Notes: generated by a model not told the origin, from the letters alone. Positions 239-6,496 are shown, numbered from the stretch's first letter. The stretch is DNA of 64,000 bases from Escherichia coli (GCF_048403405.1 NZ_CP183129.1), one strand, 5' to 3'. Program-made: numbers and translations.

Positions 239-1801
239 ATGTACCCTACTAGTTTAATTACTTCCCCGTGGTTGCCTGTTCGTTTCAAAGACGGAACGAC
301 AGGCAAGCTGGCGCCAGTCGATCTGGCTGATGAAAATGTTGTCGATATCGCTGCGCCTCGGGCAGATCTCCAGGGGGCGGCATGGCAGTTTTTGCTGGGA
401 CTATTACAAACCAGCTTCGCGCCAAAAGATCAACGTCGTTGGGATGACATCTGGGAAGACGGACTGGAAGCTGAAAAGCTACGGGAAGCATTGCTGTCAT
501 TAGACCATGCTTTCCAGTTCGGGCCAGATTCACCTTCATTTATGCAGGATTTTGAGGCGCTCACGGGAGATAAAGTTCCGGTCGCTTCGCTACTGCCTGA
601 GATTCCCGGCGTTCAAACAACAAAGTTTAATAAAGACCACTTTATCAAGCGTGGTGTAACGGAACACCTGTGCCCACAGTGTTCTGCACTAGCCTTGTTC
701 TCTCTACAGTTAAATGCACCGTCAGGCGGCAAAGGCTATCGCACCGGTTTACGCGGCGGTGGGCCGATGACGACTCTCATTGAATTACAGGAATATCAGG
801 GCAATCAACAAACACCCTTGTGGCGCAAACTGTGGCTCAACGTGATGCCGCAGGATGAAGCCGACTTACCGCTACCCAAAAAATTTGACGATCTGATTTT
901 CCCCTGGCTAGGCCCGACGCGTACCAGCGAACTGGCCGGTGCGGTGGTAACCCATGATCAGGTCAATAAACTCCAGGCGTACTGGGGAATGCCGCGGCGT
1001 ATACGTATTGATTTTAATACCACGACAGTCGGCAACTGCGATATTTGCGACGAGCAGAACGACGCGCTCCTGAGCCTGATGACGACCAAAAATTACGGTG
1101 CCAATTATGCCATGTGGCAGCATCCCTTAACGCCTTACCGTGTACCACTTAAAGAGGGTGGCGAGTTTTACTCCGTTAAACCACAACCGGGCGGTTTAAT
1201 CTGGCGCGACTGGTTAGGCCTTATCGAAACGGGTAAATCAGAAAACAATACGGAACTTCCCGCGCTGGTGGTGAAACTCTTTAATGCCAGCAGTCTGAAA
1301 CAGGCAAAAGTGGGCCTATGGGGATTTGGTTATGATTTTGACAACATGAAAGCGCGCTGTTGGTACGAACACCATTTCCCGCTACTGCTCAATAAAAAAG
1401 AAGGCCAGATACCGAAGCTGCGGCTGGCTGCGCAAACGGCTTCACGGATTCTGAGTCTGTTACGGAGTGCATTGAAAGAAGCATGGTTCTCCGATCCAAA
1501 AGGTGCAAGGGGTGATTTCAGTTTTGTGGATATCGACTTCTGGAACAAAACTCAGCATCGCTTCCTGAGGTTAGTGCGCCAAATTGAAGAAGGTCAGGAT
1601 GCGGATGAATTACTCGGCAAATGGCAAAAGGAAATTTGGTTATTCGCGCGTCAGGATTTTGACGAGCGTGTATTCACTAATCCTTATGAGCCCGTTGATT
1701 TGAAACGCGTCATGACCGCGCGCAAGAAATATTTTACAACATCGGCGGAGAAGCAAAGTGCTAAAGCCGCCAGGGAGAAAAAGCAGGAGGCTGCTGAATG
1801 A
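239..1801 (+). CDS. casA: Type I-E Cascade large subunit Cse1/CasA (Cas8e)
   Basis: 520 aa ORF, first gene of a block followed by cse2-cas7-cas5-cas6e-cas1-cas2 and a CRISPR array; ATG at 239; stop overlaps casB start (ATGA). Confidence 0.8.
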   Translation: MYPTSLITSPWLPVRFKDGTTGKLAPVDLADENVVDIAAPRADLQGAAWQFLLGLLQTSFAPKDQRRWDDIWEDGLEAEKLREALLSLDHAFQFGPDSPSFMQDFEALTGDKVPVASLLPEIPGVQTTKFNKDHFIKRGVTEHLCPQCSALALFSLQLNAPSGGKGYRTGLRGGGPMTTLIELQEYQGNQQTPLWRKLWLNVMPQDEADLPLPKKFDDLIFPWLGPTRTSELAGAVVTHDQVNKLQAYWGMPRRIRIDFNTTTVGNCDICDEQNDALLSLMTTKNYGANYAMWQHPLTPYRVPLKEGGEFYSVKPQPGGLIWRDWLGLIETGKSENNTELPALVVKLFNASSLKQAKVGLWGFGYDFDNMKARCWYEHHFPLLLNKKEGQIPKLRLAAQTASRILSLLRSALKEAWFSDPKGARGDFSFVDIDFWNKTQHRFLRLVRQIEEGQDADELLGKWQKEIWLFARQDFDERVFTNPYEPVDLKRVMTARKKYFTTSAEKQSAKAAREKKQEAAE

Positions 1802-2334
1802 GTATTGTAAAAGAGGAGCACAAAGCCACGCTGCGTAAATGGCACGAAGAGTTGCAGGAAAAACGCGGCAATCGTGCCAGTCTGCGGCGTAGCACAACGG
1901 TTAATGATGTTTGTCTGTCAGAAGGGTTTCGTTCTCTGCTGATGCAGACCCACACGTTGTGGAAAATTGAATCACAGGAGTGGCGTTTTACCGCACTGGC
2001 ACTGGTTGCCGCCGTTGCCGCCAATGTAAAAGCCATTGATGAACGGCAGCCTTTTGCCGCGCAGTTGGCGGCGGTAATGTCTGAGGGGCGTTTTACTCGC
2101 CTGTCGGCAGTCAAAACGCCGGATGAATTACTGCGCCAGTTACGTCGCGCGGTCAAATTATTAAATGGTTCCGTCAATCTTATCTCTTTGGCAGACGATA
2201 TTTTCCGCTGGTGCCAGGAGAGCGACGATCTGCTCAATCATCACCGCCGCCAGCAGCGGCCAACAGAATTTATCCGTATCCGCTGGGCGCTGGAATATTA
2301 CCAGGCTGGCGACGCCGATAACGAACAAAATTAA
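1798..2334 (+). CDS. casB: Type I-E Cascade small subunit Cse2/CasB
   Basis: 178 aa ORF; AGGAGG 8 nt upstream of ATG 1798; position between casA and casC. Confidence 0.8.
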   Translation: MSIVKEEHKATLRKWHEELQEKRGNRASLRRSTTVNDVCLSEGFRSLLMQTHTLWKIESQEWRFTALALVAAVAANVKAIDERQPFAAQLAAVMSEGRFTRLSAVKTPDELLRQLRRAVKLLNGSVNLISLADDIFRWCQESDDLLNHHRRQQRPTEFIRIRWALEYYQAGDADNEQN

Positions 2335-2348
2335 TAAAGGACTATCTC

Positions 2349-3404
2349 ATGACGACATTTATTCAGCTTCATTTGTTAACCGCTTACCCTGCTGCCAACC
2401 TTAACCGTGATGACACCGGTGCGCCAAAAACTGTGGTACTGGGTGGAGCAACGCGTCTGCGCGTTTCCTCACAAAGTCTGAAACGTGCGTGGCGCACTTC
2501 TGCACTTTTTGAACAGGCACTGGCGGGCCATATTGGTATTCGCAGTGGGCGTATTGCGCGTGAGGCGGCAACTATCCTGATTGAGAAAGGCATCGAAGAG
2601 AAAAAAGCCATCGAATGGGCGGCAAAAATTGCGGATTATCTTGGGAAAGCTAAAAACGACAAAAAACCAAAAGATCCGCTCACTAACGCCGAAACTGAAC
2701 AGCTAGTCCATATCAGCCCGGCAGAATTTGACGCCGTAAAAGCGCTGGCCCATCAACTGGCCGAAGAAAAGCGCGCGCCAAAAGAGGAAGATCTCGCTTT
2801 GTTACGTAAAGATCGCATGGCGGTAGATATCGCTATGTTTGGTCGTATGCTGGCGAATAAACCCGAATTTAATGTTGAAGCCGCCTGCCAGGTCGCGCAT
2901 GCATTTGGTGTCAGTGAAACGATTGTCGAAGATGATTTTTTCACCGCCGTTGATGATTTGCGCCAGGCTTCTGAAGATGCCGGTGCCGGGCATCTCGGAG
3001 AAACCGGATTCGGTTCAGCACTTTTCTACACCTATATCTGCATTGATAAAGATCTGCTGGTCGAAAACCTCGGCGGTGACGAAGCGTTAGCTAATCAGAC
3101 CATACGCGCCTTTACGGAAGCTGCGCTTAAAGTCTCCCCCACCGGTAAACAAAACAGTTTTGCCAGCCGTGCCTACGCCTCCTGGGCGCTGGCAGAAAAA
3201 GGCACCGAACAACCGCGTTCTCTGGCGGCGGCTTTCTATGAACCCATTAATGGCACCCGTCAGTTAGATGTGGCGGTGCAGCGTATTACAACGCTTCGCG
3301 AAAATATGAATACGGTCTACGAACAGAAGACCGAATGCACAAGTTTTGACGTGATGAACAAACAGGGAAGCATGAAGGACGTGCTGGACTTTATCTGCGC
3401 GTAA
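2349..3404 (+). CDS. casC: Type I-E Cascade backbone subunit Cas7e/CasC
   Basis: 351 aa ORF in the conserved position; size and context fit Cas7e. Confidence 0.85.
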   Translation: MTTFIQLHLLTAYPAANLNRDDTGAPKTVVLGGATRLRVSSQSLKRAWRTSALFEQALAGHIGIRSGRIAREAATILIEKGIEEKKAIEWAAKIADYLGKAKNDKKPKDPLTNAETEQLVHISPAEFDAVKALAHQLAEEKRAPKEEDLALLRKDRMAVDIAMFGRMLANKPEFNVEAACQVAHAFGVSETIVEDDFFTAVDDLRQASEDAGAGHLGETGFGSALFYTYICIDKDLLVENLGGDEALANQTIRAFTEAALKVSPTGKQNSFASRAYASWALAEKGTEQPRSLAAAFYEPINGTRQLDVAVQRITTLRENMNTVYEQKTECTSFDVMNKQGSMKDVLDFICA

Positions 3405-5713: not shown

Positions 5714-6003
5714 GCATGGTCGTGGTTGTTACAGAAAATGTCCCGCCGCGCTTACGTGGACGGCTCGCAATCTGGCTCCTGGAAGTGCGTGCTGGCGTGT
5801 ATGTCGGAGATACGTCCAAACGTATTCGGGAGATGATCTGGCAGCAAATCTCCCAACTGGCAGGTTGCGGGAATGTGGTGATGGCCTGGGCGACAAATAC
5901 TGAGTCTGGTTTTGAGTTTCAGACCTGGGGCGAAAACAGACGTATCCCGGTGGATTTGGATGGGTTACGTTTGGTTTCTTTTCTTCCTGTTGATAATCAA
6001 TAA
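5710..6003 (+). CDS. cas2: CRISPR adaptation protein Cas2
   Basis: 97 aa ORF; ATG overlaps cas1 stop (ATGA); immediately upstream of leader and array. Confidence 0.85.
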
Positions 6004-6099
6004 GTTATCCGTTCTTTAAAAATAAGGAAATGTTTGAATTTAGTTGGTAGATTGTTGATGTGAAATAAAGTTGTTTAAAAACAGATATGTATGCTTAGT
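6004..6099 (+). promoter_or_regulatory. CRISPR leader (AT-rich, between cas2 and first repeat)
   Basis: 96 bp AT-rich segment between cas2 stop and repeat 1; the degenerate repeat lies at the far end, consistent with a leader here. Confidence 0.6.
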
Positions 6100-6496
6100 G
6101 TGTTCCCCGCGCCAGCGGGGATAAACCGAATACGCAACAGTGTTTTTATTGACAACACCGGTGTTCCCCGCGCCAGCGGGGATAAACCGGCAACGCCAGT
6201 AAATCAGACCAACGGCGCTGGGTGTTCCCCGCGCCAGCGGGGATAAACCGCGTTGTTTTGCCGGGTCGGGTGAATATATCGTAGTGTTCCCCGCGCCAGC
6301 GGGGATAAACCGGCCAGATTTCCAGTTCACTGGTCTTCGCGGCAAGTGTTCCCCGCGCCAGCGGGGATAAACCGAATGAGAGCTGACAGGTGTATGTCAT
6401 CAGTACGTGTTCCCCGCACCAGCGGGGATAAACCGTAATATTAGACTAATGTTTTTTTGTTGAGTTCGTGTTCCCCGCGCCAGCGGGGAACTCCCA
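6100..6496 (+). CRISPR. Type I-E CRISPR array, 7 repeats and 6 spacers
   Basis: 29-bp repeat GTGTTCCCCGCGCCAGCGGGGATAAACCG at 6100, 6161, 6222, 6284, 6346, 6407, 6468; spacers 32, 32, 33, 33, 32, 32 bp; repeat 6 has one substitution (CGCACC); repeat 7 is degenerate at its 3' end. Confidence 0.95.

Follow-up and report, generated by a model that had tools for sequence, protein, structure and literature searches.

A cas-E1 CRISPR-Cas locus of type I-E in Escherichia coli with a lineage-specific intergenic region and a conserved 32-codon open reading frame between cas3 and casA

Introduction

Among CRISPR-Cas systems of type I-E in Escherichia coli, the cas-E1 gene set is regarded as the primary type and the E2 set carried by K-12 as a minority replacement (PMC3903273, 2014, mBio). 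The K-12 system is the experimental model, and passages of Shmakov et al. (2023, 10.1101/2023.03.03.530964) describe it as silenced by H-NS in laboratory conditions; passages of the same work place mini-arrays between cas3 and cas8e in E. coli. In a Salmonella I-E locus, experiments reported in part of Liu et al. (2023, 10.1101/2023.03.10.532045) showed that CreR represses the casA promoter. Here we compare with these systems a locus at the beginning of a 64,000-nucleotide stretch of E. coli DNA (NZ_CP183129.1), hereafter the window.

Results and discussion

An ordinary type I-E locus of the cas-E1 variant

Between positions 239 and 6003 the window carries seven intact, close-set type I-E genes, followed by a leader and an array (Table 1). 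All seven reading frames are open, with neither frameshift nor premature stop, and in profile searches they score well above the curated NCBIfam cut-offs for type I-E families. This bears out the complete and intact Cascade-cas1-cas2-leader-array unit described in an earlier note on this DNA, as well as the overlapping starts and stops reported there: casA and casB overlap by 4 nt, cas5e and cas6e by 19 nt, cas6e and cas1e by 4 nt, and cas1e and cas2e by 4 nt. Two starts differ from those in the longest-ORF list: cas6e begins at 4143 and not at 4005, because the TIGR01907 profile starts at codon 47 of the longer frame and the RefSeq start agrees, and cas1e begins at GTG 4790 and not at TTG 4754, the start that RefSeq assigns on the identical sequence and that the profile alignments support.

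Six complete E. coli genomes in RefSeq (the sibling genomes) are 100% identical to the first 6.6 kb of the window and carry the same annotation. In genomes identical over the locus, 228 nt lie between the end of cas3 and window position 1, which puts the gene where the note had expected it, upstream and outside the window. The chromosomal order is cysH - hok/sok - cas3 - casABCDE - cas1 - cas2 - leader - array - iap - cysD. Cas1e keeps all of the K-12 residues E141, H208, D218 and D221, and Cas6e has a histidine aligned with K-12 His20. The components of a type I-E system are all present: Cse1/Cas8e and Cse2/Cas11, Cas7e/Cas5e/Cas6e, Cas1e/Cas2e with their catalytic residues and, upstream of the window in a sibling genome, a Cas3 in which an HD nuclease is fused to a superfamily 2 helicase. 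We conclude that this is very probably a CRISPR-Cas locus of type I-E, belonging to the cas-E1 variant of E. coli, that is intact in structure and occupies its usual chromosomal site; as first noticed, it is an already known, ordinary E. coli type I-E CRISPR.

Table 1. Positions of the locus features in the window
Feature	Coordinates	Strand	Description	Profile (score)
3' part of cas3-casA intergenic region	1..87	+	lineage-specific
32-codon ORF	88..186	+	unannotated, conserved, between cas3 and casA; MEEKTSRCKRLFCRLMVRFGKRLSVSFQLSVN
casA / cse1 / cas8e	239..1801	+	520 aa; large Cascade subunit, PAM reader	TIGR02547 (608 bits; cut-off 70)
casB / cse2 / cas11	1798..2334	+	178 aa	TIGR02548 (105 bits; cut-off 28.5)
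cas7e / casC	2349..3404	+	351 aa; Cascade backbone	TIGR01869 (448 bits)
cas5e / casD	3415..4161	+	248 aa	TIGR01868 (160 bits)
cas6e / casE	4143..4793	+	216 aa; pre-crRNA endoribonuclease	TIGR01907 (284 bits)
cas1e	4790..5713	+	307 aa; GTG start; integrase	TIGR03638 (381 bits)
cas2e	5710..6003	+	97 aa	TIGR01873 (133 bits)
CRISPR leader, E1-type	6004..6099	+	96 nt, 74% A+T
CRISPR array	6100..6496	+	six spacers between seven 29-nt repeats (GTGTTCCCCGCGCCAGCGGGGATAAACCG)
Spacer 4	6313..6345	+	self-derived; matches chromosomal ybgE (cydABX-ybgE operon)
Hybrid terminal repeat (repeat 7)	6468..6496	+	compared with iap-proximal array ends

The immunity function of the locus, that is PAM-dependent interference and spacer uptake, is predicted from what is established for type I-E systems in general. 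The array would be transcribed from the leader, and Cas6e would cut the repeat hairpins to give crRNAs with an 8-nt AUAAACCG 5' handle. Cascade, composed of CasA, CasB, Cas7e, Cas5e and Cas6e, would scan DNA for an AAG or ATG PAM and a seed match and form an R-loop, after which Cas3, through its HD nuclease and helicase, would be recruited and the target degraded. Cas1-Cas2 would add new spacers at the leader-proximal repeat.

Judged by sequence comparison, the locus belongs to cas-E1, a variant already published and the majority type of E. coli, and a cas-E1 locus at 80% of its length or more was found in 2,422 of 5,426 complete genomes. Gene set, gene order, chromosomal site, E1-type leader and 29-nt repeat are all the same as in other cas-E1 loci (PMC3903273), and the cas genes are 91-99.8% identical in DNA to those of three other E1 strains. 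Compared with K-12 (cas-E2), the architecture is the same and every catalytic residue tested is kept, whereas the region from cas3 to cas6e is strongly divergent: Cas3 and the five Cascade proteins are just 21-35% identical (CasA 21-23%, Cas7 32%, Cas5 35%, Cas6e 27-31%, and CasB 27% over a short alignable stretch only), against 85-86% for the conserved Cas1 and Cas2. The earlier note had remarked that the Cascade proteins were unlike those of K-12, and it had set the GTGTT repeat start against the GAGTT of K-12; GAGTT is indeed seen in the K-12 array next to cas2, and the two repeats differ at position 2 alone (GAG versus GTG). The AAG/ATG PAM of K-12 would apply here as well, judging from the mini-array targets described below.

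The note's further proposal of an alternative, Salmonella-like variant holds insofar as this is the other E. coli type than that of K-12; however, E1 is the majority type and is regarded as the primary one, and the likeness to Salmonella is weak. In S. enterica subsp. houtenae the Cascade proteins are only 35-56% identical (CasA 46%, CasB 35%, Cas7 56%, Cas5 47%, Cas6e 41%) and Cas3 45%, cas3 of this subspecies is transcribed away from cse1, and two Salmonella records show cas3 inverted; a Salmonella-type I-E variant was rejected on these grounds. Salmonella does share the subtype, the array-side neighbours iap and cysD, Cas1 and Cas2 at 83-89% identity, and a mini-array with an AAG-flanked target upstream of cse1, although the S. 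houtenae locus is without the 32-codon ORF. The nearest relative outside E. coli is E. albertii (93-99%), followed by Citrobacter youngae and Klebsiella spallanzanii (about 75-88%).

The array lacks the anchor spacer and carries lineage-specific spacers

The leader shares 94-96% identity with its counterparts in three further E. coli that carry cas-E1, and 72% with the K-12 leader. The array is of type I-E form, with ~29-nt palindromic repeats, 32-33-nt spacers and the AT-rich leader. Its repeats are spaced 61-62 nt apart around spacers of 32, 32, 33, 33, 32 and 32 nt and fold into a 7-bp stem with a tetraloop; six repeat matches were observed versus 0 expected in shuffles, and repeat 6 has a single G>A change, which lies in the loop. 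The array ends near iap of L002, L004, L005 and K-12 all have the spacer GGCGCACTGGATGCGATGATGGATATCACT... and a degenerate repeat, and an anchor tandem at the array end has been described (PMC3903273). Compared with these four, the present array has no species-wide anchor spacer adjoining iap and ends in a hybrid repeat: only the first 22 nt are canonical, and the remainder is the tail (AACTCCCAGCTC...) that the degenerate terminal repeat usually has. The loss of the anchor spacer is a deletion inside the array and gives no ground for removing the cas genes from E1.

Spacers 1-3 and 5 are confined to the six sibling genomes among 5,426 complete E. coli genomes, spacer 4 is present in at most nine, and the arrays of the six siblings are identical. 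The spacers tested (1-5) are, within this genome set, lineage-specific, a difference from the published cas-E1 variant; their absence from the other 5,420 genomes implies that they were acquired after the lineage split. We infer that the ancestral anchor spacer was lost first and that new spacers were then taken up, one of them from the cell's own ybgE.

A CreR-type mini-array in a lineage-specific intergenic region

Another difference from other cas-E1 loci lies in the cas3-casA intergenic region: its 465 bp, counted through casA codon 8, were found in 6 of 5,426 genomes only, and window positions 1-263 were likewise matched by only 6 of the 5,426, even in a distant blastn mode. The part at positions 1..87 probably serves the Cascade operon as its 5' untranslated region, and consensus scans of the intergenic region found no sigma-70-like promoter. 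The intergenic region of K-12 has its own H-NS, LeuO and CRP sites; because the two intergenic sequences are unrelated, these regulatory data are not transferable to the present locus.

In a sibling genome, the interval 46-200 nt upstream of window position 1 contains a mini-array together with its AAG-flanked target (L001 11803-11955). The mini-array (L001, about 11803-11892) consists of two degenerate repeats round a pseudo-spacer on the strand opposite to cas3, and the first 17 nt of the pseudo-spacer, save for mismatches at positions 12 and 15, are matched by a site that is flanked by AAG and lies ~290 nt upstream of casA. Ten such loci, from E. coli, Klebsiella, Atlantibacter, Salmonella and metagenomes, each have their own pseudo-spacer/target pair, AAG- or ATG-flanked in all cases, and mismatches among the first 18 positions fall mostly at 6, 12 and 18; a seed-plus-PAM match would arise by chance at about 0.002 per locus. 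The partial, PAM-flanked match is thus maintained by covariation, as for CreR-type elements. The type I-E CreR and mini-arrays, as far as the passages cited above portray them, share with this element the position between cas3 and casA, the reading direction opposite to cas3, a seed-side repeat retaining 5'-handle bases and another retaining the hairpin, and a partial match of about 14-17 nt to an AAG/ATG-flanked site upstream of casA. In contrast, here the pseudo-spacer and target sequences are lineage-specific, and target and casA are separated by a stretch that includes a conserved 32-codon ORF. Cascade expression in the six-genome lineage would probably be self-limited by a CreR-type crRNA-like RNA from this opposite-strand mini-array.

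A conserved 32-codon reading frame upstream of casA

We regard the 32-codon ORF as a modest new lead. A Shine-Dalgarno-like AGAGGG precedes it by 8 nt, and 52 nt separate its end from casA. The ORF is situated between the CreR target and casA and is probably co-transcribed with the operon. Intact copies comprise seven distinct 32-aa sequences including that of the window, every one between cas3 and casA, and this frame is the sole one open in all six sequences tested. Between E. coli and K. spallanzanii there are 14 synonymous versus 8 nonsynonymous codon differences, distributed over codon positions as 8/4/18. The peptide is strongly cationic, with a net charge of about +5.5, a pI of about 11 and a GRAVY of -0.23. 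Searches of Pfam, NCBIfam and PADLOC gave zero matches, and the ORF is not mentioned in the passages on I-E mini-arrays of 10.1101/2023.03.10.532045 and 10.1101/2023.03.03.530964.

One possible reading, which we hold with less than even confidence, is that the ORF is a leader peptide (upstream ORF) whose translation tunes the Cascade operon and whose free product is functionless; for example, its translation would counter Rho- or H-NS-linked premature termination within the long 5' leader or be coupled to that of casA. Consistent with this, the ORF occupies a fixed place 45-57 nt upstream of casA on the same strand, its Shine-Dalgarno-like motif is conserved, no terminator-like site was found between ORF and casA, and loci without the ORF do well. 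However, conservation of the amino acids over the whole length and the synonymous excess point to selection on the peptide itself, not merely on its being translated, although sequence-specific cases are known among regulatory leader peptides.

It is unlikely that the ORF instead encodes a toxin or other effector that Cascade, carrying the mini-array RNA, keeps repressed, a guard of the CreTA/CrePA type, although several features point that way. Every intact copy is placed between the Cascade/CreR target and casA and is accompanied by a mini-array; of the two truncated copies, that of K. indica has lost the mini-array and that of L058 still has it. The cationic character of the peptide fits as well. 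Furthermore, passages of 10.1101/2023.03.03.530964 report that toxin genes are enriched between mini-arrays and cas genes, type I-E included, and those of 10.1101/2023.03.10.532045 report the partner toxin of I-E CreR as not yet identified. As with CreTA/CrePA of types I-B and I-F, a small gene is found inside the cas locus downstream of a site that Cascade would bind through a crRNA-like RNA; here, however, it adjoins and is co-oriented with the cas operon, its own promoter is not evident, and it encodes a conserved peptide and not a tRNA-sequestering RNA. Since the ORF is on the strand of casA and only 52 nt upstream, every induction of Cascade would yield its product too, an awkward arrangement for a toxin. 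Mini-array and target occur without the ORF at many I-E loci, among them L004 and L005 of E. coli and L052 of Salmonella. The known classical small membrane toxins are hydrophobic, a property that this peptide lacks. Toxicity is putative, and the database searches returned no defence or toxin family. If such a guard did operate, the cell would depend on a working Cascade, or would die once an anti-CRISPR disabled it.

Cas3, the possibility of decay, and the self-derived spacer

The reading of the locus as an intact cas-E1 system also has to be weighed against the doubtful alternative that it is a silent or decaying relic, in which cas3 is a pseudogene, Cascade binds without cleavage, the array is frozen and immunity is lost. 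RefSeq flags cas3 of sibling genome 4621 as a frameshifted pseudogene, and an extra T in cas3 is common to all six sibling genomes. However, this T lies inside a 43-nt stretch upstream of a GTG that has an AAGGA ribosome-binding motif, and the flag relates only to a 14-codon N-terminal extension outside the family profile. The GTG-started ORF of 885 aa is covered from residue 2 by the HD (TIGR01596) and helicase core (TIGR01587) profiles and keeps the equivalents of H74/D75, K320, D452/E453 and S483/T485 (HD motif, Walker A, DEAH and motif III); the Cas3 proteins of relatives are annotated at 884-886 aa. We infer from these features that Cas3 would be translated from the GTG. A relic would also accord with the protospacer searches, which gave zero phage matches for any of the six spacers and zero plasmid matches for spacers besides spacer 4, with the identical arrays of the six genomes, and with the tolerance of a spacer against the cell's own chromosome. 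Against this, the seven downstream genes are all intact without signs of decay, and the spacers restricted to the lineage imply uptake after it had split.

The intact cas-E1 system would then carry one self-derived spacer. Spacer 4 matches ybgE at 33/33 positions in most E. coli, the sequence being found in 5,384 of 5,426 genomes, and at 32/33 in sibling genome 4621, where the mismatch at position 32 is synonymous; the 5' flank of this target is CAT in register, and ATG one base off register. It is very improbable that Cascade guided by spacer 4 to ybgE dampens the end of the cydABX-ybgE operon without cleavage: the lone mismatch to the cell's own ybgE is PAM-distal and, on the strand reading made, pairing of the crRNA would be with the coding (non-template) strand, but stable Cascade binding is doubtful because the in-register flank is neither AAG nor ATG (36 of 64 PAM trinucleotides are inert in the K-12 system, according to a passage of PMC6568314), the spacer is held by at most nine genomes, and ybgE is the final gene of the operon. 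Accidental self-acquisition is the simplest reading, and the spacer may be tolerated because the PAM is out of register, because the system is repressed, or both.

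Architecture and variant of the cas operon

Seven consecutive ORFs on the plus strand make up the cas operon, and each scored far above the cut-off of its NCBIfam type I-E model (protein table). In the mechanical ORF list cas6e and cas1e are too long; both the profile alignments and the way RefSeq annotates the identical sequence have cas6e starting at 4143 and cas1e at a GTG at 4790. With these corrected starts the genes overlap by 4 nt at casA/casB, cas6e/cas1e and cas1e/cas2e, and by 19 nt at cas5e/cas6e. A 96-nt leader (74% A+T) lies directly before the array, in which a 29-nt repeat whose hairpin has a stem of 7 bp and a tetraloop occurs seven times at a spacing of 61-62 nt, leaving six spacers; six repeat matches were observed, versus none in 100 shuffles. 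An Rfam scan of window 1-8000 at gathering thresholds matched nothing and is thus uninformative about the array. The earlier note had described a complete Cascade-cas1-cas2-leader-array locus, and with all seven frames open this description holds. The locus is a known system, annotated by RefSeq in identical copies.

In type I-E systems the array is transcribed from the leader and its repeats are processed by Cas6e, Cascade surveys DNA with an AAG/ATG PAM, Cas3 is recruited and the target degraded, and Cas1-Cas2 integrates new spacers at the leader end. The type I-E parts list is present and intact here, and the locus would work by this same mechanism.

Type I-E proteins of the locus: NCBIfam scores and amino acid identity to K-12 and S. 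houtenae
Protein	NCBIfam score (bits)	Cut-off (bits)	Identity to K-12	Identity to S. houtenae
Cse1/CasA	608	70	21-23%	46%
Cse2/CasB	105	28.5	27% (short stretch only)	35%
Cas7e	448	178	32%	56%
Cas5e	160	69	35%	47%
Cas6e	284	45	27-31%	41%
Cas1e	381	216	85%	83%
Cas2e	133	33	85-86%	89%
Cas3			29-32%	45%

Comparison with K-12 confirmed two points of the earlier note, namely that the repeat begins GTGTT here and GAGTT in the K-12 array beside cas2, and that the Cascade proteins, CasA, Cas7 and Cas5 among them, differ from those of K-12. Judged from these alignments, the identity pattern is the published dichotomy between cas-E1 and cas-E2. In the view of Almendros et al., the primary set in E. coli is E1, which the E2 set of K-12 has replaced in a minority of strains, and each of the two variants has a separate leader (PMC3903273). 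With a query coverage of at least 80% as the limit, 2,422 of 5,426 complete genomes have the variant. DNA identity to three other E1 strains was 91-99.8% gene by gene, which makes these cas genes ordinary alleles of E1. Thus, the proposal of an alternative E. coli variant stands, as cas-E1, whereas its description as Salmonella-like does not: the proteins are only distantly similar, and in two Salmonella records, one of them S. enterica subsp. houtenae, cas3 and cse1 are transcribed divergently, which leaves that label unsupported. Among species representatives the nearest relatives were E. albertii (93-99%) and an Escherichia sp., followed by Citrobacter youngae, Klebsiella spallanzanii and Phytobacter, with a CasA identity of about 75%. 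The top CasA identity in this set, 96%, belonged to a 7-kb contig (L009) assigned to a metagenome-assembled genome of Collinsella sp., most likely an Escherichia contig that was wrongly binned.

Six complete E. coli chromosomes share window 1-6600 at 100% identity (strains 4621, MS 69-1, TUM1226, TUM14771, GN02461 and OX030728), and the host recorded for five of these is human in every case. Their annotated gene order is cysJIH - hok/gef - cas3 - casA - casB - cas7e - cas5e - cas6e - cas1e - cas2e - CRISPR - iap - cysDNC. The genome of strain 4621, hereafter the sibling genome, is identical to the window over the first 18.6 kb, and over the remaining 45 kb it shows three substitutions and one 10-nt indel; the window is thus from a sibling of strain 4621 and not from that strain. 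Elsewhere in the window, fhlA is a single open frame, and the copy in strain 4621 is 10 nt longer and annotated as frameshifted. Genes for a HigB-family toxin and a helix-turn-helix antitoxin, annotated in the sibling genome, occupy the hycI/ascB interval.

The locus, an E. coli type I-E system of the standard non-K-12 kind, changes nothing by itself; what is added here concerns four points: a cas3 gene that is likely mis-flagged, a reset array with a self-derived spacer, a CreR mini-array and a small ORF.

Coordinates of the features discussed
Feature	Position in window	Position in other locus
cas operon, seven ORFs (+)	239-6003	
Leader	6004-6099	
CRISPR array	6100-6496	
Spacer 4	6313-6345	
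Missing anchor and hybrid last repeat	6436-6496	
32-codon ORF (+)	88-186	
fhlA (-)	31071-33185	
HigB-family toxin and antitoxin genes (+)	45091-45818	L055 26491-27218
cas3 5' end with extra T	outside window	L001 (sibling-genome locus) 9073-9116
Hairpin, mini-array and target	46-228 nt upstream of position 1	L001 11774-11955
ybgE match to spacer 4		L008 (sibling genome) 23568-23600
RelE/Xre pair		L052 (S. enterica subsp. houtenae) 3509-3948

cas3 upstream of the window

The earlier note had placed cas3 upstream, beyond the window, and in the sibling genome the end of the gene indeed lies 228 nt upstream of window position 1. There RefSeq labels it "frameshifted", and relative to an E1 strain with a Cas3 annotated as 899 aa, one extra T is found 20 nt past the annotated ATG in all six genomes. 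A GTG located 43 nt downstream of this ATG and preceded by AAGGA opens an unbroken frame of 885 codons, and it is from this GTG that cas3 would be translated. The Cas3 family model aligns from residue 2 in the 885-aa protein and from residue 14 in the 899-aa version, and gene calls for Cas3 of related loci are 884-886 aa long. Furthermore, the 885-aa protein has the HD and helicase-core domains and keeps the equivalents of K-12 H74/D75, K320, D452/E453 and S483/T485. With the frame intact, domains and residues kept and relatives of matching length, it is unlikely that cas3 is a pseudogene; the comparisons suggest that all the protein loses through the frameshift is a doubtful extension at the N-terminus, leaving cas3 probably functional. 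The "frameshifted" flag in the six genomes is then probably a start-site artefact, and if so, surveys that score such loci as defective are wrong for this lineage.

Loss of the anchor spacer and a self-derived spacer in the array

As a rule, the arrays of E. coli are shared and static. In each of four others compared, that of K-12 included, the iap end has a common anchor spacer (GGCGCACTGGATGCGATGATGGATATCACT...) and a degenerate repeat, an arrangement described previously (PMC3903273). Here the anchor spacer is absent and the last repeat consists of 22 canonical bases joined to the tail of the degenerate repeat; by its composition, this hybrid is the footprint of a repeat-to-repeat deletion. 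Among complete E. coli genomes, spacers 1, 2, 3 and 5 were found only in the six, and a second copy of the spacer-4 sequence in at most nine. Masking probably removed spacer 6, which is of low complexity, from the E. coli search, and its uniqueness refers to the local loci only.

A protospacer search with the whole array matched only other CRISPR arrays. Searched alone, the spacers gave no match above chance in phages, and in a plasmid collection the only matches were to ybgE, by spacer 4, in mislabelled chromosomes. All 33 nt of spacer 4 match the core gene ybgE, which closes the cydABX-ybgE operon, and the spacer sequence is present in 5,384 of the 5,426 genomes. In the sibling genome itself ybgE matches at 32 of 33 positions, with a mismatch at position 32 that we read as a synonymous TTT/TTC difference. 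The 5' flank of the ybgE protospacer is CAT in the register that the repeat sets, and an ATG lies one base out of register. On the strength of the match, spacer 4 is derived from an E. coli chromosome, and its tolerance would be explained by the out-of-register PAM, by repression of the system, or by both. The lost anchor, the spacers unique among complete genomes and the self-derived spacer are apparent signs of past activity in this lineage, during which the locus probably took up spacers itself.

A CreR-type mini-array between cas3 and casA

The 465-bp region between cas3 and casA, together with casA codons 1-8, was found in only the same six of the 5,426 genomes, sensitive blastn included. 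In other strains the interval is 97 bp (E1 strain L002) or, in a few, an unrelated 429-450 bp. No close donor of the region turned up among species-representative genomes, where the sole similarity was in the small ORF (72% at the DNA level, K. spallanzanii) and in a hairpin/repeat. Because the intergenic regions are unrelated, regulatory sites known from K-12 are not transferable. In consensus promoter and terminator scans, promoter-like sites were fewer than in shuffles, the cas3-casA region had none, and no promoter could be placed.

Directly after the cas3 stop codon lies a hairpin with an 11-bp stem, followed by two inverted degenerate CRISPR repeats 61 nt apart. Read on the opposite strand, the upstream repeat retains the 5'-handle bases GGGATAAACCA, the downstream repeat retains the hairpin GTTCCCCGCGTCAGCGGGGAT, and positions 1-11, 13-14 and 16-17 of the 33-nt pseudo-spacer between them (GCAGTAAGAGGTAGC...) agree with a site that lies at a distance of 92 nt and has AAG before it. 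The same layout of mini-array and target was seen at ten loci (three E. coli lineages, K. spallanzanii, Atlantibacter, S. houtenae and four metagenomic or draft loci); every pair of pseudo-spacer and target was different, and the flank was AAG or ATG each time. Over positions 1-18 the mismatches at these loci fell mostly at 6, 12 and 18, which are left unpaired in type I-E Cascade. By a rough estimate, the seed and PAM match alone would arise by chance with a probability of about 0.002 per locus. From its layout and pairing, the element, whose mini-array and target are 46-200 nt upstream of window position 1, is a member of the published CreR, or regulatory mini-array, class. One paper describes mini-arrays between cas3 and the large-subunit gene in E. 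coli I-E loci (10.1101/2023.03.03.530964), and another reports, from experiment, that CreR makes Cascade repress the casA promoter in a Salmonella I-E locus (10.1101/2023.03.10.532045). CreR probably exerts autorepression of this kind in the six-genome lineage.

In the S. enterica subsp. houtenae locus a RelE/Xre toxin-antitoxin pair lies between the divergent cas3 and the mini-array upstream of cse1, a position that agrees with the enrichment of toxin-antitoxin genes near mini-arrays that has been reported.

A candidate small gene between the CreR target and casA

Between the CreR target site and casA the window contains a 32-codon ORF (MEEKTSRCKRLFCRLMVRFGKRLSVSFQLSVN) that is absent from the RefSeq annotation. 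Including this one, there are seven distinct intact homologues, all equal in length and all 45-57 nt upstream of casA; the others come from K. spallanzanii, Atlantibacter sp. RC6, several draft or metagenomic enterobacterial loci and one further metagenome contig. Across the six sequences tested, only this frame is open in every one. The ORFs of E. coli and K. spallanzanii differ at 8/4/18 sites by codon position, with 14 synonymous versus 8 nonsynonymous codon differences; the Shine-Dalgarno-like motif is conserved, and in the whole intergenic region of these two species only the small ORF and the hairpin/repeat are conserved. This pattern of conservation argues with good confidence that the ORF is a real small gene, which is probably co-transcribed with casA.

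The predicted peptide is strongly basic (pI ~11, net charge ~+5.5) and had zero matches in Pfam, NCBIfam and PADLOC. Among 1.84 billion representative proteins, a profile search yielded no more than four true relatives, and no called gene on record encodes the exact E. coli peptide. The family is rare and confined to the interval between the CreR target and casA in some enterobacterial type I-E loci.

Candidate functions are a leader peptide, a small regulator and a toxin guarded by Cascade. The CreR paper states explicitly that a toxin partner for the I-E element is not known (10.1101/2023.03.10.532045), and the passages of the mini-array papers that a term search retrieved do not mention the small ORF. 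We consider it a speculative and rather unlikely prospect that the ORF encodes a new CRISPR-associated small protein placed under transcriptional control by Cascade, serving either as the toxin partner of CreR, in the manner of a CreTA/CrePA-like guard, or as a regulator, a peptide acting on Cascade. Its position between the CreR target and casA makes it a concrete and cheaply testable candidate for the I-E CreR partner gene, and it is the sole element of the locus that could open something new.

Two of four metagenome hits to a DNA pattern (L057 and L059) turned out to consist of simple GTCAGT/TTTTCAGT repeats whose contexts are unrelated, and were dropped. Degraded copies of the small ORF also occur: one, interrupted, comes from an assembly that is probably Salmonella and has numerous apparent frameshifts, and K. 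indica and one metagenome contig have truncated ones.
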